A stretch of 64,000 bases of DNA from Candidatus Omnitrophota bacterium (GTDB lineage: Bacteria > Omnitrophota > Gorgyraeia > JABMRN01 > RBG-13-46-9): positions 40,807 through 104,806 of the forward strand of contig JADHYN010000002.1 in the NCBI GenBank assembly GCA_016782425.1, in the 5' to 3' direction. Every line of letters starts with the position of its first letter. Within the stretch, counting starts at the first letter, position 1. A program made the translations under genes and the position numbers. This document shows positions 356-48,727 of this stretch, one piece after another. A model generated the notes under the pieces. That model was given only the letters and a program-made list of their open reading frames with translations, was not told where the DNA came from and did not search any database.

Positions 356-1831
356 CTAAATCTTTAAAGCGAATTTCTCTCCGAAATCAATAAGCTTGAG
401 TGCTTCTTTCTCGTTGCGTCCTTCAGAATATATGCGCAACTTCGGTTCGGTACCGGAGGGCCTCAGCATGAGCCAGCTTCCGTTGGAACGCATGAATTTG
501 AAACCGTCGAACGACTTTACATTAACTACGTGCATGCCAAGGATTTTTTTAAACGGTCGTGTCCCTAATTTTGCTACCAGGCGTTTCTTTTTACCCGACG
601 AAAGGGGCAGGTCATGGCGTTTATAAACATAGGTGCCATACATTTTATTTATGTCTTCTACAATTTTTGCGAGGGGCTTCTTTCTTGAGGCTATCATCTC
701 TAAAATGAGTAGCCCCGATACTATGGCGTCTCTTTCCGGTAACCAGTTCTTGACCGCAACGCCTCCTGTTTCTTCCCCGCCTACTAATATGTCCTCTTTT
801 TTAATGATTTCAGCTATGTATTTAAAGCCGACGGATGTTTCGTAGGTTTTAAGACGGTACCTCTTGCATATCTTGTCTATTAACGCGGTACCGCAAATAG
901 TCTGAACAACGCCGCCCTTCAGGCCTCTGTCCTCAAAAAGATAGAGTAAAAGCAGTGTCATGACCTTGTGCCCGCTCAAAACTTTTCCGGTTGCAAGTAT
1001 TATGCCGAGTCTGTCAGCGTCTCCGTCGGTAACCAGGCCGATGTCAAAACGGCCTTTTTTGACGGCTGCTGCCGTCTCTTTCAAAAGCCGCTCATTGGGC
1101 TCGGGTGCTCTTCCGCCGAAATATGGATCTCTTGTACCGTTTATCGTGGTAACTTTATTACCCGTGCCTTTGAGTACCTCTTCTAGGTATTTCGCACCTG
1201 CTCCGTTCATGCTGTCTACTAAAACTTTTAATTTTGCTTTTTTCAAGAGTGCCATATCTGCATATTTTTTCGCGTATTTAAGGTGGAGCGGAATGATGTT
1301 CTCGAATTTTATAAGCCCTTTCTTTGTGGCTACTTCTTTGTCCATAAATTTTACTTTTGATTTGTATAGCCTGGATTCCATGAAGTCCGTCGCCTTCTTA
1401 CCAGCAGAACCTCCAAAGCACCCTTTGTATTTTATGCCGTTATACTGCGCCGGGTTGTGGCTTGCCGTGACCATAACCCCGCCGATAAGTTTTTTGTGTT
1501 TTATCTTGAAACTTACAGACGGTGTAGGTGTGGGTCTATCCGCCAAAATCACTTTTATGCCGTTTGCGGCAAATACGCAGGAGATGAGTTCTGCATACCT
1601 CTCCGATAAGAAGCGTGTGTCGTAACCGACAACGACGGTAAATTTTCTTCCGTAAAACTCGTATTTTTTATTTTTGATTTTTTCCGCCCGAGGCGGATCC
1701 GCCTTTGGCGGAGATTTTTGATTTTTAATGTAGTCCGCTATCGCCTGCGCGACAATTTCAACATTTTCAAAAGTAAAGTCCTCGCTTATAACGGCTCTCC
1801 ATCCGTCTGTCCCGAATTTAATTTTGTCCAT
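356..1831 (-). CDS. phosphoglucomutase/phosphomannomutase family protein
   Basis: GTDGWRA N-terminus, active-site loop TASHNPAQYNGIK, and Mg site DGDADR. Start moved to ATG 1831 (MDKIKFGTDGWR) behind a GAAGGGGG SD; the track start at 1846 is a TTG. Confidence 0.9.
   Translation of the reverse strand: MDKIKFGTDGWRAVISEDFTFENVEIVAQAIADYIKNQKSPPKADPPRAEKIKNKKYEFYGRKFTVVVGYDTRFLSERYAELISCVFAANGIKVILADRPTPTPSVSFKIKHKKLIGGVMVTASHNPAQYNGIKYKGCFGGSAGKKATDFMESRLYKSKVKFMDKEVATKKGLIKFENIIPLHLKYAKKYADMALLKKAKLKVLVDSMNGAGAKYLEEVLKGTGNKVTTINGTRDPYFGGRAPEPNERLLKETAAAVKKGRFDIGLVTDGDADRLGIILATGKVLSGHKVMTLLLLYLFEDRGLKGGVVQTICGTALIDKICKRYRLKTYETSVGFKYIAEIIKKEDILVGGEETGGVAVKNWLPERDAIVSGLLILEMIASRKKPLAKIVEDINKMYGTYVYKRHDLPLSSGKKKRLVAKLGTRPFKKILGMHVVNVKSFDGFKFMRSNGSWLMLRPSGTEPKLRIYSEGRNEKEALKLIDFGEKFALKI
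1662..1726. repeat. heptamer-flanked double CCGCC-N3-GGCGG hairpin element, in-frame inside the phosphohexomutase CDS
   Basis: Reads (TATTTTT)2 GATTTTT T CCGCC CGA GGCGG AT CCGCC TTT GGCGG A (GATTTTT)2. A sister copy lies at 12227-12269. Confidence 0.8.
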
Positions 1832-4259: not shown

Positions 4260-4301
4260 TACCTGTTACCTGCTACCTGCTACCTGCTACCTGTTACCTG
4301 C
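4260..4301. repeat. tandem heptamer array (TACCTGY)x6
   Basis: Read directly. It fills the ruvX-stop/M16-start spacer and contains the ruvX stop codon (TAG on the minus strand). Confidence 0.9.
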
Positions 4302-9130: not shown

Positions 9131-9165
9131 TAACAGCTATAAGCTATACGCTTTAAGTTTTAAGC
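9131..9165. repeat. tandem heptamer array TAACAGC TATAAGC TATACGC TTTAAGT TTTAAGC
   Basis: Read directly. It fills the trpD-stop/trpC-start spacer and contains the trpD stop codon. Unit family AAGYTNT, as at 32334-32368 and 32720-32754. Confidence 0.8.
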
Positions 9166-10172
9166 TTATTGGTTAGCTCTTTTAATTTCTCTAATTTTTC
9201 TAGCGCGGCGCCTGAGTCGATCGACTCCTTGGCTTTCTTTATCCCGTCTCTCAGCGTATCGGCTATACCTGTAATGTAAATAGCCGCGCCCGCATTTAAC
9301 GTAACAATATCCCGCTTAAAACCCTTCTTTTTGTTAAGTATATCCAGCGTCACTCTTACGTTAAAAGCAGTATCGCCGCCTTTTAACTCTTCTTTTTTTG
9401 AACGCGGAAGGCCCAAATCCTCCGGTTTTATGGTATATATTTTGACTTTTTTATCTTTAAGTTCCGCAACAGTGGTTGAGTCCGTGGTTGTCATTTCATC
9501 TAACCCGTCTTTTCCGTGCACTATCATCGCCCTCTCGGATCCCAGGTTATTGAGAACGTTCGCCAATGTTTCCACGAGATCTTCGTCGTAAACGCCCAAA
9601 AGCTGATATTCGGCGCCTGCTGGATTTGTCAACGGCCCTAAAATATTAAAAATTGACCGCGCTTTGATCTTTTTCCGTGCAGGCATGGCATATTTCATGG
9701 CAAGGTGGAGCTTCGGTGCAAAAAGAAAACCTATGCCAACCTCGTCAATGCATTTCTCAATTGTGTCTTTTTCAATAGCTATATTCACGCCGAGACACTC
9801 CAAAAGGTCCGCACTTCCGCATTTACTTGATACTGCTTTATTGCCGTGCTTGGCAACGCTGCAACCCGCGCCCGAAGCAACAAAGGCGCTGATTGTCGAG
9901 ATATTAAACGTATTGGCCGAGTCGCCACCTGTGCCGCAGGTATCGAGTAAATGCGGCTTTTTGGGGTTTATTTTCGTGGCGAACTTGCGCATGATGCGCG
10001 CGGCGCCCGTTATTTCTTCTACAGTTTCTTTCTTCTCTTTAAGCGCCAAGAGAAAAGACGCAATATCATCTACTTCTGCTTTTCCGCCCATAATCTCGGT
10101 AAAAACCGCTTCTGTCTCGTTTTCCGAGAGGTTCTCTTTTCTCTTTGCCTTTTCTGTAGCTTTTTTTATCAC
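9153..10172 (-). CDS. trpD: anthranilate phosphoribosyltransferase
   Basis: DTCGTGGDS motif; 339 aa. Confidence 0.9.
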   Translation of the reverse strand: MIKKATEKAKRKENLSENETEAVFTEIMGGKAEVDDIASFLLALKEKKETVEEITGAARIMRKFATKINPKKPHLLDTCGTGGDSANTFNISTISAFVASGAGCSVAKHGNKAVSSKCGSADLLECLGVNIAIEKDTIEKCIDEVGIGFLFAPKLHLAMKYAMPARKKIKARSIFNILGPLTNPAGAEYQLLGVYDEDLVETLANVLNNLGSERAMIVHGKDGLDEMTTTDSTTVAELKDKKVKIYTIKPEDLGLPRSKKEELKGGDTAFNVRVTLDILNKKKGFKRDIVTLNAGAAIYITGIADTLRDGIKKAKESIDSGAALEKLEKLKELTNKLKT

Positions 10173-10738
10173 TTTTTTATCTCTAAGAAATTTTTTAATA
10201 TCTTTTTCCCTTCGGAGGTCAAAATTGATTCGGGGTGAAATTGCACTCCCCAGGTGGGGTGTTTCTTATGCTTTATGCCCATGATTTCTTTTTTCTTCGT
10301 CTCGGCGATAATTTCCAGAGTCCTGGGAAGGGACTTTCGTTCTATAATCAAAGAATGATACCGTGTGGCCTCGAACGGGTTTTTAACATTCTTGAAAATC
10401 GTTTTCCTCGTGTGGTGTATAAATGATGTCTTTCCGTGCATTATGTATTTGGCTCTTTTGATCTTCCCGCCGAAAACTTCTCCGATGCACTGGTGTCCGA
10501 GACAAACACCTAAAATAGGAATCGAGCCCGAGAACTTCTTTATTACATTGTTGGAAATGCCCGCATCCCGCGGCATGCCAGGCCCCGGTGATATAATGAT
10601 ACTCCGAGGTTTCATCTTTTTTATTTTGTTCAGTGTCAATGCGTCGTTTCTGAAAACCAAAGGATCCTCTCCCAGCTCACCGAGATACTGGACGAGGTTG
10701 TAGGTAAAAGAGTCGTAATTATCTATTACTAAAATCAC
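10169..10738 (-). CDS. trpG: anthranilate synthase component II (glutamine amidotransferase)
   Basis: GVCLGHQ catalytic Cys and the HPES triad end. Confidence 0.9.
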   Translation of the reverse strand: MILVIDNYDSFTYNLVQYLGELGEDPLVFRNDALTLNKIKKMKPRSIIISPGPGMPRDAGISNNVIKKFSGSIPILGVCLGHQCIGEVFGGKIKRAKYIMHGKTSFIHHTRKTIFKNVKNPFEATRYHSLIIERKSLPRTLEIIAETKKKEIMGIKHKKHPTWGVQFHPESILTSEGKKILKNFLEIKK

Positions 10739-12222
10739 TCTAATCCCCTTTCAGCTTCCTTGAGAGCCTTTAGCATCGCTTTTGATTTATTGAGCGTCTC
10801 CTGGTACTCTCTATCGGGCTTAGAATCAGCAACGATTCCTGCACCCGCCTGAAAATAAGCAGTTTTCCCTTTTATGAAAATAGTCCTGATGGCTATGCAC
10901 GTATCCAGATTTCCTGAAAAACTGAAATATCCGACGCTTCCGGCGTAAATACCCCTTTTGACGTTCTCGAGTTCATCGATTATTTCCATGGCGCGTATCT
11001 TGGGTGCACCTGCTACCGTGCCGGCCGGAAACGAGGCCCTGGCAAGGTCGAATATGTCGCACTTGCGTTTTAAGGTTCCGGATACGTCGCTTACGATATG
11101 CATGACATGGGAGTATTTCTCTATCACCATGAATTCCGAAACCTTTACGGTATCAAACCTCGAGACCCTTCCTATGTCATTTCTCCCGAGGTCAACAAGC
11201 ATGATGTGCTCCGCTCTTTCCTTCGGATCCTTTAAAAGCTCCTTTGCAAGAAGCTTGTCCTCTTTTCTATCCCGGCCTCTTCGCCTCGTTCCGGCGATCG
11301 GCCTGAGTTCTGCTTCTCGGTTTTCGCATCTCACCATGATCTCAGGCGATGCACCGATAAGTTTCAGATTGCCGAACTTTAGGTAAAACATGTAGGGAGA
11401 CGGATTTATGCTTCTAAGTGCGCGGTATATGTCAAAAGAATCGCACTCTACTTCTTTTTTGAATCTCTGAGAAAGAACTACCTGAATAATATCGCCGTTT
11501 CTTATATATTCCTTGGCTTTTTTCACGCTTTGCATGAATTGTGTTCTCGTGAAATTCGATTTTATGGGATTTTTTCTTGCTCTTTTTTTCATTGTTTTCG
11601 AAGCGCCTATCGGCATTCTTTTAGGCATGGATAGGTGTTTTATGATTTCTTCTATCTTCCGCACTGCCTTCTCATATGATGCGGAAGGGCTCTTGCCGAC
11701 AAAGGCATTCGAAACAACCTTTATTTTACGATCCACGTGATCAAAAATAAGAATGGTATCGGTCAGGGCAAAAAGAGAATCAGGCAAGTTTAAATCGTCC
11801 TTATTTCTGTCCGGTATCTTCTCGAAGAATCTGACAACGTCATAACCCATGTATCCGACCAACCCCCCGGAAAACCTGGGAAGCCCTTTAACCGGCACGT
11901 AAGAGAATTTCTTCATGATCTTCTTGATTTCAGCAAGCGGATCTTTCTGCATCTTATAAACCTTTTTTTTCTTGCCCTCCAGTATTGTAATTTTCTTGCC
12001 CTTGCTAATGAAAATTAATGAGGGATTGCTGCCAAGAAAGGAGTAACGCGCTATTCTTTCTCCGCCCTCGACGGATTCGAGAAGATAGGAAAATTTTCCT
12101 TTGTTTATTTTTGTAAAAGCAGAAAGCGGCGTCTCAAAATCAGCCAGTATCTCCCTGTAAACGGGGATGAGATTTCCCTTCTTCGCCAGCTTTATGAATT
12201 CTTTCTTACTTGGGTAATGCAT
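10735..12222 (-). CDS. trpE: anthranilate synthase component I
   Basis: LVDLGRNDIGRV and GAGIVADS chorismate-binding motifs; 495 aa. Confidence 0.9.
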   Translation of the reverse strand: MHYPSKKEFIKLAKKGNLIPVYREILADFETPLSAFTKINKGKFSYLLESVEGGERIARYSFLGSNPSLIFISKGKKITILEGKKKKVYKMQKDPLAEIKKIMKKFSYVPVKGLPRFSGGLVGYMGYDVVRFFEKIPDRNKDDLNLPDSLFALTDTILIFDHVDRKIKVVSNAFVGKSPSASYEKAVRKIEEIIKHLSMPKRMPIGASKTMKKRARKNPIKSNFTRTQFMQSVKKAKEYIRNGDIIQVVLSQRFKKEVECDSFDIYRALRSINPSPYMFYLKFGNLKLIGASPEIMVRCENREAELRPIAGTRRRGRDRKEDKLLAKELLKDPKERAEHIMLVDLGRNDIGRVSRFDTVKVSEFMVIEKYSHVMHIVSDVSGTLKRKCDIFDLARASFPAGTVAGAPKIRAMEIIDELENVKRGIYAGSVGYFSFSGNLDTCIAIRTIFIKGKTAYFQAGAGIVADSKPDREYQETLNKSKAMLKALKEAERGLE

Positions 12223-12226
12223 TTTT

Positions 12227-12269
12227 GATTTTTTCCGCCCTAGGCGGAGATATTTGATATTTGATATTA
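12227..12269. repeat. heptamer-flanked CCGCC-CTA-GGCGG hairpin element (intergenic copy)
   Basis: Reads GATTTTT T CCGCC CTA GGCGG A GATATTT GATATTT GATATTA. It occupies the trpE-start/hisI-stop spacer and includes the hisI stop. Confidence 0.8.
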
Positions 12270-12644
12270 TTTTCTATATACGTCTTTCGGATCAAATATG
12301 CGTTTTTCGACTATCTTTTCATTCCCGCTCTTATCGATCTCTCTATAGTAGCACGTAAAATACCCTTTGTGGCAGGCAGCGGTTTTCTGCTCGACTTTAA
12401 AAAGAAGCGAGTTATCCGTACAATCGACCAGGACTTCCTTTACGATCTGCACATTTCCCGATGTTTCCCCTTTCAGCATGACCCTGTTTTTTGACCTTCT
12501 AAAAACATAGACCTTGCCTTCTTTAATAGTTTTCTCGAGAGCCTCTTTATCCATGTAGCAAAGGGTCAGTACTTTATTTGTCTTGCAATCCTGCACGACA
12601 GCGGGTATTAAACCTTTTTCGTTAAAGATTAGCTTATTTATCAT
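12267..12644 (-). CDS. hisI: phosphoribosyl-AMP cyclohydrolase (HisI only, no HisE fusion)
   Basis: 125 aa; [17 protein letters not shown] core and conserved C-terminal Cys residues ([11 protein letters not shown]). Confidence 0.85.
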
Positions 12645-22489: not shown

Positions 22490-22512
22490 TTGGCGACCGC
22501 GTCGGTCGCCAA
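22490..22512. repeat. REP palindrome copy A
   Basis: 9-bp GC-rich stem with a 5-nt loop; ends 4 nt before the RAYT stop codon. Confidence 0.9.
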
Positions 22513-23172: not shown

Positions 23173-23194
23173 TTGGCGACCGCGTCGGTCGCCA
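23173..23194. repeat. REP palindrome copy B
   Basis: Same sequence as copy A with the last base changed; directly upstream of the RAYT SD. Confidence 0.9.
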
Positions 23195-23268: not shown

Positions 23269-23291
23269 TTGGCGACCGACGCGGTCGCCAA
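23269..23291. repeat. REP palindrome copy C (loop inverted)
   Basis: Identical over 26 nt (TTGGCGACCGACGCGGTCGCCAAATG) to the copy at 46402. Confidence 0.9.
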
Positions 23292-32297: not shown

Positions 32298-32333
32298 TAT
32301 CCTCGGCTTCTTTTCTATAATAAACCCCGTTTC

Positions 32334-32368
32334 AGTTTTAAGTAATAAGTTTTAAGTTCTAAGTTTTT
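32334..32368. repeat. heptamer array AGTTTTA AGTAATA AGTTTTA AGTTCTA AGTTTTT
   Basis: Read directly; overlaps the last codons and the stop of the four-helix-bundle gene. Confidence 0.85.
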
Positions 32369-32705
32369 TGGAAAAAGAATAAAGCATTCTACTTATTTCT
32401 TTTCCATTAACTATATGTTTTTCAGTTTCTTTTATATTTATCAATTTTAATCTTGCGGATAAATCTAATGCTGTTAATACCTCATTAACAGATCTATAGG
32501 CATAAGATATAAACTGTAAAAACTCTTTATTGCTTGACGTTCCGGCACCTTCAGCTATATTAAGAGGGATTGAAATAACTGCTCTTTTGATTTGAGATGT
32601 TAAATTATATATTTCCGTGGTCGGTAAACTTTTAGACATTTTATAAATATCCTCGCAGTACTCCATGGCTTTCTTATATATCTGTAATTTTCGATAATCT
32701 TGCAT
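32352..32705 (-). CDS. four-helix-bundle protein (23S rRNA intervening-sequence protein / Avd-like family)
   Basis: LTSQIKRAVISIPLNIAEG core typical of this family; 117 aa; no SD upstream. Confidence 0.8.
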   Translation of the reverse strand: MQDYRKLQIYKKAMEYCEDIYKMSKSLPTTEIYNLTSQIKRAVISIPLNIAEGAGTSSNKEFLQFISYAYRSVNEVLTALDLSARLKLINIKETEKHIVNGKEISRMLYSFSKKLRT

Positions 32706-32719
32706 AATCTAAACAATAA

Positions 32720-32754
32720 CTTATAACTTACAACTTAAAACTTATAACTATTTA
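32720..32754. repeat. heptamer array CTTATAA CTTACAA CTTAAAA CTTATAA CTATTTA (inverted relative to 32334-32368)
   Basis: Read directly. Its reverse complement is (AAGTTNT)n, the same unit as the left array. It overlaps the stop of the upstream kinase gene. Confidence 0.85.
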
Positions 32755-45985: not shown

Positions 45986-48727
45986 ATGGACCGAAATCTA
46001 CCGGAAAAATTTAAAAAGATCTCATCCGAATATAGCAATCAAATTGCAATCAAGTATAAAAAGGATAATAAATGGGCTACTATTACCTACGGTGATTTTA
46101 ATAACACCCTTGAATCGCTATGCAACTTTTTATTAACAAAAAATATTAAAAAGGATGATAAGATCGCTATCCTCCTGAAAAACAGGCCTGAATGGCCGCT
46201 TGTATTTTTCGCATCGCTTTCCATAGGGGCTGCCTGTGTACCTATGAATCCCGAATTAACCCAGAAGGAAATCCAAAATATACTTAATAATTCTGAGTCA
46301 AAAATCGTCTTTACGGACGACGGGTTTTTACGTCTAAAAAAGGAAATCCTGCAAAACTGCCCTTCTGTAAAAGAAGTTATTTCCGTGGATTCAGAATCAG
46401 TTTGGCGACCGACGCGGTCGCCAAATGTTAGTAGCGACCGCCATGCCGATCCGGGTGATACAGCATGCATTCTATACACCTCGGGTACCACTGATGAGCC
46501 AAAAGGCGTTATGCTTTCGCACAAGAATTTGCTTTCGAACTGCGAATCGCTTTATAAATTAAACCTGATTACCCGGAAAGACAGCGTAGTTTCCATTCTT
46601 CCGCTCCACCATACCTATCCGCTAACCATAACGATGCTTCTCCCGCTTTTATACGGCGGCATGATAGTCTATCCCGGTACGCTGCGCGGAGAAGCCGTTT
46701 TACAAGCATTAAAAGAGACCAATCCTACTGTTTTTGTTGCCGTGCCGCAGATTTTTTATACGTTTCATCAAAAGATTGTGGATCTACTGAAGAATATCCC
46801 CTTTCCCCTAAAGCTCTTGCTTAATGCTACAACCAATCTTTTATATCGGATTCGGCGTAAAACACGCATCAATTTATCACGCTACCTATTTTTCAGTCTC
46901 CAAAAAAAATTCGGAAAATCGATGCGTTTATTTGTAAGCGGGGGCGCGAAGCTCGATGAAAACGTCGAACAGGACCTTTTCAAATTCGGATTTACGATAT
47001 TGGAAGGTTACGGCCTTACGGAAACCTCGCCTGTCTTAGCCTTGAATCCTTTAAAAAATCCAAAAATAGGTTCGGTAGGACTTGCGATACCAGAGGTGGA
47101 ATTAAGAATAATAAATAAGGATGAGAATGGCCTGGGTGAGGTCATAGCGCGCGGCCCGAATATTATGGAAGGATACTACAAAAGAAGTGATTTAACCGCC
47201 GATGTGATAAAAGACGGGTGGTTTTATACGGGTGATTTAGGATTTTTTGATAAAGACGGCTATTTGTTTTTGACCGGGAGGTCGAAGGATATAATTGTAT
47301 TGAGTTCGGGTAAGAATATATATCCGGAAGAAATAGAAGAGGCTTACTCTAAAGACGTGCCTGCAGAGGAAATATGCGTATTCGAAGTGCCGTCTAAAAA
47401 GGGAGCCAAAGAAACGGAAGTCCTATGGGCTGTTATTGTTCCCGATCTTAAATTCTTCAAAAAATACGGAGAGGTGAATTTAAAAAATGTTATAAAAGAA
47501 AGAATTGACAATGTATCGAGATCCTTACCTCCCCACAAAAGGCTTATGGGTTTTTCCATAACGCTTGATGAGCTTCCGCGTACGCTTTTGGGTAAAGTTA
47601 AAAGGTTTGCCGTTAAAGAAATTTACATACCAAAGATACTAGAGGAAGAAAAAACCATACCGGAAAAAGAGGACTTATCCCGGGAAGACCGTGAATTAGT
47701 AAATACCTATTTCGGTAAAAAGATAATAGATTATCTTAAAAAAACGGCCAAAGTTGACAAGGCGATTGTCCCGGCTAATTCGCTGGAACTCGACCTCGGG
47801 ATAGATTCATTAGGCAGAATTGACCTTGCCTTCGGCCTTGAAAAGCTGTTTGGAACGGAAATAGAAGATGAAATTATCGGCCGTTCGTTTACGGTAAAGG
47901 ACTTAATTCTGGGCTGCATGGAATCGCTTTTGCCGAAAGATACCAAAACCAAGCGGGAAGGCAAAAAAGGAATAGATTTTGGGCCTGATTACTGGGTAAA
48001 ACTTCTCCGGGTTCCCCCAAAAAAGGAAAGCCTGGATAAAATTGATTTAAACCCGGGTTTTGGCGCCTGGCTGGGTGGCTTTATTTTCACGTTATTGCAT
48101 TGGTTGGTCTATAAATTGTTTTATAGCCTAAAAGTAGAAGGAAAGGAAAATTTTCCCGAAAGCGGACCATATATATTATACGTGAATCATTCGAGTTACT
48201 TCGACGGGTTCCTTGTTGCGGTGTCTTTGCCTAAATTTCCGAGATTAGAGTTATTTTTTGTAGGCTTCAGGCCGTATTTTACCGTACCCATTATCAGGAA
48301 CCTCGTAAAAATAGGAAGAATCATACCGCTTGACTTCTCCTCGCACCTTTTAGAGGCCTTACGAAGCTCGTATTATGTCGTTAAAAAAGGTAAAAGCCTG
48401 TGTTTATTCCCCGAGGGCTTGCGTACGCTTGACGGAGAGATAAAAGAATTTAAGAAAGGGTTCGGTATACTGGTAAAAGAAACGCAGGCAAAGCTTGTGC
48501 CGGTTGTTCTAGAAGGCGCTTACGAAGCATGGCCGAGGACTTCCAAATTTCCCAGACGCCACCCTATAAAGGTAAAGTTCGGCAAGCCACGGGATCCCGG
48601 AGATATGGAAAGAGAAGGCTATAAAATGGGCGCTAAAGACAGCTATGAAGCTATATGCCTTGCAGCAAGGGATGTGCTGGTAACGCTAAAAGAAACCACA
48701 ACTTATGGAGGCCGAAGGCCAACTTAA
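45986..48727 (+). CDS. tridomain protein: AMP-dependent acyl ligase, carrier (PP-binding) domain, and 1-acylglycerol-3-phosphate-type acyltransferase
   Basis: LYTSGTTDEPKGV, GYGLTETS, and YTGDLG adenylation motifs; LGIDSLGRIDL carrier Ser; NHSSYFD (HX4D) and FPEGLRT acyltransferase motifs. Confidence 0.85.
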   Translation: MDRNLPEKFKKISSEYSNQIAIKYKKDNKWATITYGDFNNTLESLCNFLLTKNIKKDDKIAILLKNRPEWPLVFFASLSIGAACVPMNPELTQKEIQNILNNSESKIVFTDDGFLRLKKEILQNCPSVKEVISVDSESVWRPTRSPNVSSDRHADPGDTACILYTSGTTDEPKGVMLSHKNLLSNCESLYKLNLITRKDSVVSILPLHHTYPLTITMLLPLLYGGMIVYPGTLRGEAVLQALKETNPTVFVAVPQIFYTFHQKIVDLLKNIPFPLKLLLNATTNLLYRIRRKTRINLSRYLFFSLQKKFGKSMRLFVSGGAKLDENVEQDLFKFGFTILEGYGLTETSPVLALNPLKNPKIGSVGLAIPEVELRIINKDENGLGEVIARGPNIMEGYYKRSDLTADVIKDGWFYTGDLGFFDKDGYLFLTGRSKDIIVLSSGKNIYPEEIEEAYSKDVPAEEICVFEVPSKKGAKETEVLWAVIVPDLKFFKKYGEVNLKNVIKERIDNVSRSLPPHKRLMGFSITLDELPRTLLGKVKRFAVKEIYIPKILEEEKTIPEKEDLSREDRELVNTYFGKKIIDYLKKTAKVDKAIVPANSLELDLGIDSLGRIDLAFGLEKLFGTEIEDEIIGRSFTVKDLILGCMESLLPKDTKTKREGKKGIDFGPDYWVKLLRVPPKKESLDKIDLNPGFGAWLGGFIFTLLHWLVYKLFYSLKVEGKENFPESGPYILYVNHSSYFDGFLVAVSLPKFPRLELFFVGFRPYFTVPIIRNLVKIGRIIPLDFSSHLLEALRSSYYVVKKGKSLCLFPEGLRTLDGEIKEFKKGFGILVKETQAKLVPVVLEGAYEAWPRTSKFPRRHPIKVKFGKPRDPGDMEREGYKMGAKDSYEAICLAARDVLVTLKETTTYGGRRPT
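46402..46424. repeat. REP palindrome copy D, in-frame inside the ligase CDS
   Basis: TTGGCGACCGACGCGGTCGCCAA, translated as VWRPTRSPN just upstream of the LYTSGTT motif. Confidence 0.9.

Follow-up and report, generated by a model that had tools for sequence, protein, structure and literature searches.

A 30-nucleotide (nt), GC-rich palindrome lies in frame within a phosphoglucomutase/phosphomannomutase family gene (the mutase gene) of an Omnitrophota genome, at positions 1683-1712 of the 64-kb stretch of DNA analysed here (the window), and a single 15-nt unit of the same kind lies between hisI and trpE at positions 12234-12248. The first is very probably a copy of a dispersed, GC-rich, non-autonomous family of palindromic insertion elements that is compatible with open reading frames (ORFs), and the second a half-size copy of it. 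The family looks like an extremely small form of selfish DNA that apparently has not been described before.

On the forward strand, positions 1662-1726 read (TATTTTT)2 GATTTTT, TCCGCC CGA GGCGGA, TCCGCC TTT GGCGGA, (GATTTTT)2, which on the minus, coding strand is ATT (AAAAATC)2 [TCCGCC AAA GGCGGA][TCCGCC TCG GGCGGA] AAAAATC (AAAAATA)2. Positions 12223-12269 read TTTTGATTTTT, TCCGCC CTA GGCGGA, GATATTT GATATTT GATA TTA, or TAATATC (AAATATC)2 [TCCGCC TAG GGCGGA] AAAAATC AAAA ATG on the minus strand. Exact occurrences of CCGCC-N3-GGCGG (CCGCCNNNGGCGG) number three in the window against 0.02 expected, a count reached in none of 100 dinucleotide-preserving shuffles, and AAAAATCAAAAAT with at most one mismatch was matched seven times against 1.5 expected. 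The sequence at both sites is as the original prediction, made from the letters of the window, had given it, and its abundance is well beyond chance. Each unit, TCCGCC-N3-GGCGGA, makes up a perfect hairpin of 15 nt, with a loop of 3 nt and a stem of 6 bp, where the prediction had seen 5 bp; what it took for an 'AT' spacer is the A that ends one unit and the T that begins the next, as the units abut. The common form, referred to as type A, is a 30-nt inverted doublet, TCCGCC-NNA-GGCGGA-TCCGCC-TNN-GGCGGA, centred on GGATCC. It can fold into two 6-bp hairpins or into one 6+5-bp hairpin with a 2x2 internal loop. For the window 30-mer, two hairpins were predicted in DNA (-12.8 kcal/mol, z = -4.4) and a 6+5-bp hairpin with an internal loop in RNA (-21.8 kcal/mol).

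The mutase gene carries the doublet as ten extra codons. Its product, which has a 100% identical counterpart in a Candidatus Omnitrophica metagenome-assembled genome (MAG), was aligned with 34 Omnitrophota orthologues. Close orthologues of 481 aa (63-78% identical) read ..ADYVKSQKS/KIKNKKSE.. and the window protein ..ADYIKNQKS-PPKADPPRAE-KIKNKKYE.., within the in-frame minus-strand translation ..IKNQKSPPKADPPRAEKIKNKKYE.. The difference from this clade is exactly 10 residues or 30 nt, comprising both hairpin units and nothing more, and deletion of 1683-1712 restores the ..QKS/KIKNKKYE.. of the 481-aa orthologues. The insert entered at the junction of two heptamers, ..ATC^AAAA.., without a target-site duplication. 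An AlphaFold2 model (mean predicted local distance difference test score, pLDDT, 88.8) puts it in a loop that separates helix 21-39 from strand 63-70, where residues 42-48 have a pLDDT below 50.

The heptamers on either side of the insert had been predicted to be part of the element's architecture. They are instead the mutase's own Lys-rich linker, because insert-free orthologues carry the same five degenerate, A-rich heptamers unbroken (L205 ..AGAAGTC^AAAAATA.., L206 ..AAAAAGC^AAAAATC..; comparison sequences are cited by L numbers). With the five heptamers shared and a gain of exactly 30 nt, both a heptamer component of the element and an origin of the heptamers as target-site duplications were ruled out. 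The enzyme family had also been said to have a short linker here. The window protein does have 10 residues extra, but the linker of the close clade is itself 13 residues long, heptamer-encoded and hypervariable: one orthologue (L014) has 12 tandem heptamers, and two others (L001, L002) have a different 30-nt insert, type B. Judged from these alignments, the mutase linker is an insertion hotspot. The L014 repeat, at 1190-1275 in another Omnitrophota MAG, is (GNCAGAA)12 and encodes a 7-residue peptide repeat (QKAEGRR-like); it is in frame, and coding heptamer microsatellites therefore expand in three-unit steps. The features of both window sites are listed in Table 1.

Table 1. Features at the two window sites that carry palindromic units (window coordinates).
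Feature	Position	Strand	Details
Type A double-unit element	1683..1712	.	Minus strand TCCGCC AAA GGCGGA TCCGCC TCG GGCGGA; phase 2 translation (S)PPKADPPRAE
Hairpin unit 1	1683..1697	.	Forward strand TCCGCC CGA GGCGGA; 6-bp stem, 3-nt loop
Hairpin unit 2	1698..1712	.	Forward strand TCCGCC TTT GGCGGA; inverted relative to unit 1, by loop
Phosphoglucomutase/phosphomannomutase family gene, 491 aa	356..1831	-	PDB homologues E = 1e-71; insert = residues 40-49
Native heptamer array, 3' linker part	1662..1682	-	AAAAATC AAAAATA AAAAATA, encoding KIKNKK(Y); KIKNKKSE conserved in insert-free orthologues
Native heptamer array, 5' linker part	1713..1726	-	AAAAATC AAAAATC, encoding (I)KNQK(S)
Single 15-nt unit	12234..12248	.	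Minus strand TCCGCC TAG GGCGGA; hisI-trpE spacer
Spacer heptamers by trpE start	12223..12233	-	AAAAATC AAAA, then ATG
Spacer heptamer array overlapping hisI stop	12249..12269	-	TAATATC AAATATC AAATATC; TRF period 7, 2.9 copies, 100% matches
trpE, anthranilate synthase component I, downstream of spacer copy	10735..12222	-	
hisI, phosphoribosyl-AMP cyclohydrolase, upstream of spacer copy	12267..12644	-	PF01502 on identical L207 gene

A pattern search was used for the identification of further copies. Joint Genome Institute (JGI) metagenome contigs were scanned with ATCTCCGCC-N{3,18}-GGCGGAAAAA, which matched at least 120 stretches, and 80 loci were tabulated for gap length. A gap of 18 made up 25 of the hits in these 80 loci, against about 5 expected under even lengths, and nearly all gap-18 matches read TCCGCC-NNN-GGCGGA-TCCGCC-NNN-GGCGGA, though the search had left the inner 12 bases free. 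The 120 listed loci, two IMG/VR contigs and the window were then taken together, and the 30-mer with at most three mismatches defined a set of 38 listed copies, the window included; the real total is at least 38. Besides the window, the 30-mer stands in at least 37 places on metagenome contigs. One of the IMG/VR matches, on a contig classed as viral (L204 390-419), supplies the final codons of an ORF for a group II intron reverse transcriptase/maturase; the second match in that viral collection (L203) lies within GC-rich sequence.

Among the listed copies the stems differed from the consensus at 7 of 912 positions, and the inner stems, which the search did not fix, at 6 of 456. In 36 of the 38, position 9 is occupied by A and position 22 by T; loop positions 7, 8, 23 and 24 show free variation, and different lineages have different loop sequences. 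No loop-loop covariation was detected in these copies (53 complementary pairs against 54.4 expected, p = 0.75). Given the conserved A9 and T22, the long hairpin with a 2x2 internal loop may nevertheless form. The consensus, TCCGCCAAAGGCGGATCCGCCTTTGGCGGA, reads as a perfect palindrome about a central GGATCC and is predicted to fold in DNA into a 13-bp hairpin at -16.9 kcal/mol or into two 6-bp hairpins. It has 67% GC, in host contigs of 30-55% GC (mean 41%), and its synonymous sites are invariant despite the low-GC hosts; type B and a further variant (in L211, below) retain palindromy by compensatory changes. This pattern of conservation indicates that the constraint acts on the nucleotides, not on the protein. 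Units of 15 nt also stand alone, in frame, within other genes, reading SA[KER]GG (L088, L157, L176, L183), and doublets are about 8 times commoner than singlets among the matches listed in the same scan. Heptamer-periodic flanks were found in 3 of the 38 listed copies, about 15 times the 0.5% at control positions; by these counts a heptamer array is a favoured landing context, neither defining nor part of the element.

Most copies lie within genes. ORFs of at least 100 aa contain 34 of the 38 listed copies, and 31 of these 34 are in phase 0, giving SA-x-GGSA-x-GG (binomial p = 3e-12). This peptide is read from either orientation because the DNA is palindromic, and the element never truncates an ORF because it is ten codons long and its consensus is free of stops in all six frames. 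The host genes are mutually unrelated. They include genes for a PyrK-like protein, AroA, Xaa-Pro peptidase, FtsA, RseP, TypA, RsmE, PolX, TrmD, SMC, NusB-Nudix, DnaJ, AtpA, LeuRS, IleRS, RelA/SpoT, MurB, a P-type ATPase, Ddl, TrxB and proteins with a type IX secretion system (T9SS) tail. When AtpA and TrmD are aligned with homologues of solved structure, a clean gap marks the decapeptide. The window copy is among the few in the Pro-rich frame; its location, a disordered linker rich in Lys, is consistent with copies surviving where they are tolerated. Intergenic copies exist as well (window 12234, L114, L155). Coding heptamer tracts of the AAAAATC type, with peptides such as KIKNQKSKLKNKIKI, were also seen in Patescibacteria (TrmD in L124, LeuRS in L164), some of them in exactly the loop that holds the 30-nt element in an orthologue.

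Comparison of relatives gave precise pairs of filled and empty sites. An Azambacteria RseP contains the element, whereas precisely those 10 residues are missing from its nearest relative (86% identical); the DNA reads AAT TTT [30 nt] GAT GAA against AAC TTT ^ TCT GAG, with no duplicated flank. The same RseP insert is present on 24 contigs from independent projects. A ProRS-like synthetase reads IEI[SARGGSALGG]KSS, against IEL-KSS in an 82%-identical orthologue. Together with a copy in the S11 gene, these bring the count to three within 21 kb of the Azambacteria genome, whereas 18 kb of its relative contain no copy and two comparable genes there are empty. The site of the copy in PolX is not the same in two lineages, and the copies in TrmD likewise differ in position between lineages. 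At the RseP site of a more distant relative (L211, ~540-580) stands a 36-nt variant, TCCGCT AAA GGCGAGATCTCGCC CTCTTGG GGCGGA, whose inner palindrome GGCGAGATCTCGCC is centred on AGATCT instead of GGATCC and is palindromic still. The relatives of the window's mutase and TrpE are all Omnitrophota, including complete genome CP070780, and exact protein look-ups placed other copies in the Parcubacteria group, Azambacteria, Falkowbacteria, Liptonbacteria and the 'Patescibacteria group'. The family is therefore shared by two phyla of ultra-small bacteria from groundwater and sediment.

The original prediction of a tiny, non-autonomous palindromic element tolerated in ORFs is strongly supported by orthologues that lack exactly 10 residues, by the in-frame 30-mer in dozens of unrelated genes and by the filled and empty pairs. 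It had proposed that orthologues be aligned and the segment mapped on a structure, that further copies be sought by pattern and that related genomes be compared for presence and absence; these comparisons returned, respectively, a 10-residue gap in orthologues with the insert in a low-pLDDT loop, at least 37 doublets in metagenome contigs, and precise filled and empty pairs (mutase, RseP, ProRS-like), with none within clusters of at least 90% identity.

The hisI-trpE spacer measures 44 nt, between the hisI stop (12267-12269) and the trpE ATG (12220-12222), and consists of heptamers and one unit only. It is unchanged in L207, an independent assembly of the same strain (99.97% identity). The unit is lineage-specific, because L208 (TrpE 79% identical) has an unrelated 32-nt spacer and L209 has no spacer. 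The spacer copy had been regarded as a sister copy with the same architecture. The unit is indeed related, but it represents half the architecture, one unit instead of two, and is best read as a half-element within a heptamer array. A further match within trpE at 12061-12075 (TCCGCCCTCGACGGA, one mismatch) was rejected as an element; it encodes the conserved LLESVEGGE motif of anthranilate synthase.

Sister elements were found as well. Type B is also 30 nt long, TCCGCC TTC GCC AA GGC TTC GGCGGA CAGG, and occurs at L001 722-751 and L002 1563-1592, both in the mutase linker, and at L209 123-152 in pheT. In L002 the sequence matches the reverse complement of that in L001 with two mismatches and lies one heptamer further along; the two are independent insertions of one element in opposite orientations. 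The pheT copy, in a complete Omnitrophota genome, shows a compensatory stem change, TCCCCC...GGGGGA. Type B is read in three frames, as RLRQGFGGQA, LVRRSPGEGG and PPSPRLRGTS. In the Azambacteria S11 gene (L213 1055-1109, also L212 and L216), a second small, GC-rich palindrome, ..CGCCTG ACGGACGGG CAGGCG.., is nested in the second unit of the element, giving SAQGGSPPDGRAGASGGK. On four low-GC contigs (L118, L121, L131, L146), a conserved segment TTTTTTTAA ATC TCCGCC GGAG..AAAACAATGAAG GCGGA AAAA stands upstream of an ORF that starts MAE(I/V)K; its TCCGCC...GGCGGA ends are those of the element and its interior is different, so that instead of an element it may represent a leader structure.

Several known systems resemble the element in part. 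Rickettsia palindromic elements (RPEs), reported by Ogata et al. in 2000, are in-frame palindromic repeats of about 100-150 bp without a transposase of their own, which add roughly 30-50 residues to many unrelated housekeeping genes and are confined to Rickettsia (as summarised in PMC10969869). The present element shares their in-frame presence in unrelated genes, the extra peptide at tolerated positions and the absence of an own transposase. It differs in being about five times smaller (15 or 30 nt, adding 5 or 10 residues), in being a perfect palindrome with the same peptide from both strands, and in its occurrence in Patescibacteria and Omnitrophota; with only 30 nt to compare, any sequence in common with RPEs would be minimal. 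REPINs, the replicative form of REPs, are inverted doublets of short, GC-rich hairpin units with two alternative folds and rarer singlets, mobilised by RAYTs without duplication (PMC3116915; PMC3733652). The element is likewise non-autonomous and an inverted doublet, with loops NNA/TNN, rarer singlets and no target duplication. In contrast, REPs and REPINs are extragenic, whereas 34 of the 38 listed copies lie in long ORFs; the GTAG/CGTC tag of REPs is absent, the element ending in TCCGCC/GGCGGA with flanks ATC/TTT and AAA/GAT/GAA; and REPINs measure about 70-100 nt with a spacer, whereas the element's units abut to a total of 30 nt.

The GC clusters of yeast mitochondria are short GC-rich palindromes in AT-rich genomes, including in frame in var1, and have counterparts in the byps of Magnusiomyces (PMC8811140). 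As in these clusters, changes in the GC-rich palindrome are concentrated in the loops and in-frame gene copies produce size polymorphism. The clusters, however, are mitochondrial, mostly intergenic and usually bear AG/TAG terminal repeats read as target duplications, whereas the element is bacterial and has no terminal direct repeats. Byps are bypassed by the ribosome and their length need not be divisible by three, whereas the element is exactly 10 codons, and bypass is not needed because it is 30 nt long with a stop-free consensus. [quoted passage not shown] The small dispersed repeats (SDR) of Nostoc, reported by Elhai et al. in 2008, are said to be hairpin-forming mobile repeats of 21-27 nt that insert precisely into HIP1, tandem heptamers and each other; they occur in cyanobacteria, and in-frame residence in housekeeping genes is said not to be their hallmark. 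As so described, they are similar in size and in nesting (compare the L213 S11 copy), and their sequences differ. The element misses at least one defining feature of each of these families and is thus placed apart from each, within in-frame palindromic selfish DNA. In the searchable literature, the coverage of which is incomplete, no prior description was found of the sequence, of the peptide or of palindromic coding elements in Patescibacteria or Omnitrophota.

As to mechanism, the element enters as an exact gain of 15 or 30 nt, in either orientation and without target-site duplication, and it has proliferated in particular lineages, with one frame favoured among the surviving copies. Copies survive mostly where the peptide would be harmless: in phase 0 as a flexible Gly/Ser/Ala loop, predicted to lie in surface loops, and less often in the Pro-rich frame, as in the disordered linker of the window mutase. 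The likely agent is an enzyme that acts in trans and recognises the hairpin or hairpins folded on single-stranded DNA, the best analogy being REPINs with RAYT/IS200-type HUH transposases. Single units may have arisen from doublets by decay or deletion, or may be used less efficiently as a substrate. In the eight copies with flanks that the search did not constrain, TTT or TTC predominates on the left and GAA or AAA on the right, which suggests a quasi-palindromic target of about TTY^RAA. Gene conversion, as proposed for the yeast mitochondrial GC clusters, would be an alternative route of spread (PMC8811140).

Other origins of the two window copies were weighed against this. Slippage or template switching (quasi-palindrome mutation) in an unstable heptamer microsatellite could have formed them on the spot, with no mobile family involved, and would suit their location within AAAWATC heptamer arrays, the hypervariability of the mutase linker, which reaches 12 tandem heptamers in one orthologue, and the absence of a target duplication. 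Such a local origin is very unlikely, however, as the 30-mer recurs in at least 37 other places, 35 of them without heptamer context and belonging to another phylum, and as the flanking A/T heptamers offer no template for the TCCGCC/GGCGGA stem. Selection at the protein level might instead have recruited a flexible linker of the SAKGGSASGG type repeatedly, leaving the DNA palindrome incidental. The Gly/Ser/Ala-loop frame of 31 of the 34 in-ORF copies and the location of inserts in loops would be expected from it, but so would diverse synonymous codons for the peptide, and none were seen: synonymous positions are invariant, with GC-rich codons in genomes of 30-45% GC. The window copy and a few others are moreover read in another frame (PPKADPP..), there are intergenic copies, and the single peptide from both orientations arises solely through the palindromy of the DNA, so that recruitment of this kind has only the slightest chance of being correct.

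A nucleic-acid signal of the host under selection, such as an intrinsic terminator, an mRNA-stabilising hairpin or an operator for a dimeric DNA-binding protein, would account for strongly conserved stems with drifting loops, for stable RNA folds (-21.8 and -9.9 kcal/mol), for the terminator-like appearance of both window copies on the forward strand and for copies at the same position in two LeuRS and two DnaJ genes. It is nonetheless improbable. The T-tract follows the stem only on the forward strand, antisense to all neighbouring genes, whereas the sense strand has A-tracts and one copy is mid-gene; terminators in the region (20) are not above the number in shuffles (15.5 +/- 4), and no Rfam 15 model matched at gathering score anywhere in the window. 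Placement is random relative to operon structure, the 34 copies mid-ORF in housekeeping genes share no common regulon, and 82-86% identical orthologues manage without the element. The GGATCC centre is a BamHI site, and GGCGGATCCGCC is present in cloning primers in the literature, which would be consistent with a palindromic adaptor or linker introduced during library construction or assembly. An artefact of this sort is scarcely credible when frames and homology are seamless across every insert, the RseP insert recurs on 24 independently obtained contigs, the spacer copy is identical in two assemblies, loop sequences vary by lineage and no match exists in 72,556 plasmid or 50,697 phage records.

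Some observations weigh against a mobile insertion element. A scan of 40 window ORFs (19.8-63.5 kb) revealed no transposase, RAYT, Y1_Tnp or integrase domain (the window outside this range is a his/trp operon by synteny), and the mutase and RseP pairs show no target duplication or excision footprint that would define a mechanism. The window itself, with 64 kb, shows one doublet and one singlet only. Length polymorphism was absent within clusters of at least 90% identity, and activity is therefore not demonstrably ongoing. The shared positions in the two LeuRS genes, and likewise in the two DnaJ genes, could be old insertions under selection, hinting at a host function, rather than re-insertion at a hotspot. 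The metagenome search fixed the flanks ATC...AAAA, so that target preference is biased and copy numbers are biased or lower bounds. Translation of the insert as a 10-residue loop, over its removal or bypass, is assumed.

The window contains other repeats. A second palindrome family, (T)TTGGCGACCG-[CGT/ACG]-CGGTCGCCAA(A), occurs at 22490-22512, 23174-23194, 23269-23291 and 46401-46425. Three copies are in spacers around recA, a 212-aa ORF of unassigned function and cinA, and one is inside an AMP-binding/acyltransferase ORF, reading ..VWRPTRSPN..; the family could be another small palindromic element or the operator of a recA/cinA regulon. The region surrounding the GGCGACCG palindrome in the AMP-binding gene is variable in solved homologues. 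Tandem heptamer arrays of differing sequence fill operon spacers at 4260-4301, 9135-9166, 12249-12268, 32330-32367 and 32716-32749, for example (TACCTGC)6 on the forward strand between the RuvX and M16-peptidase genes; the syntenic relatives L205, L206, L208 and L209 have no spacer or unrelated spacers at such sites. The arrays recall the heptamer short tandemly repeated repetitive (STRR) sequences of cyanobacteria. A small 23S_rRNA_IVP/four-helix-bundle gene (32352-32705, minus strand; PF05635, E = 4e-33) between histidine-kinase and response-regulator genes has a heptamer array on either side, an arrangement that resembles the insertion of an entire cassette. In the spacer between the M50-peptidase and mutase genes, positions 1891-1921 form a perfect hairpin with a 14-bp stem, CCCCGTTAGAAATA-TCT-TATTTCTAACGGGG; this spacer is 13-19 nt in L205, L206 and L208 and holds a different, long compound palindrome in L209.

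A broader proposal, to which we give somewhat less than even credence, is that the element is the smallest protein-coding-compatible selfish DNA described so far, resident in essential genes of streamlined ultra-small bacteria of at least two phyla and moved without duplication by an enzyme that recognises the hairpin or palindrome, and that with its sister families (type B, the nested CGCCTG..CAGGCG and GGCGACCG) it is a significant source of lineage-specific loop insertions. If confirmed, a pure palindrome of 30 nt, or 15, would suffice to spread; this would set a lower size limit for mobile DNA and constrain what the mobilising machinery must recognise. The identity of the stem across phyla points to mobile agents or enzymes common to co-occurring ultra-small groundwater bacteria. 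Short odd insertions in proteins of the candidate phyla radiation (CPR)/Patescibacteria and Omnitrophota hamper annotation, alignment and structure prediction, and the element would give some of them a concrete mutational cause, with its motif as a simple marker for locating such insertions and for strain typing. The 10-residue Gly/Ser/Ala loop in ATP synthase alpha, aminoacyl-tRNA synthetases, S11 and TrmD would also serve as a natural experiment that shows which positions in these proteins tolerate insertion.

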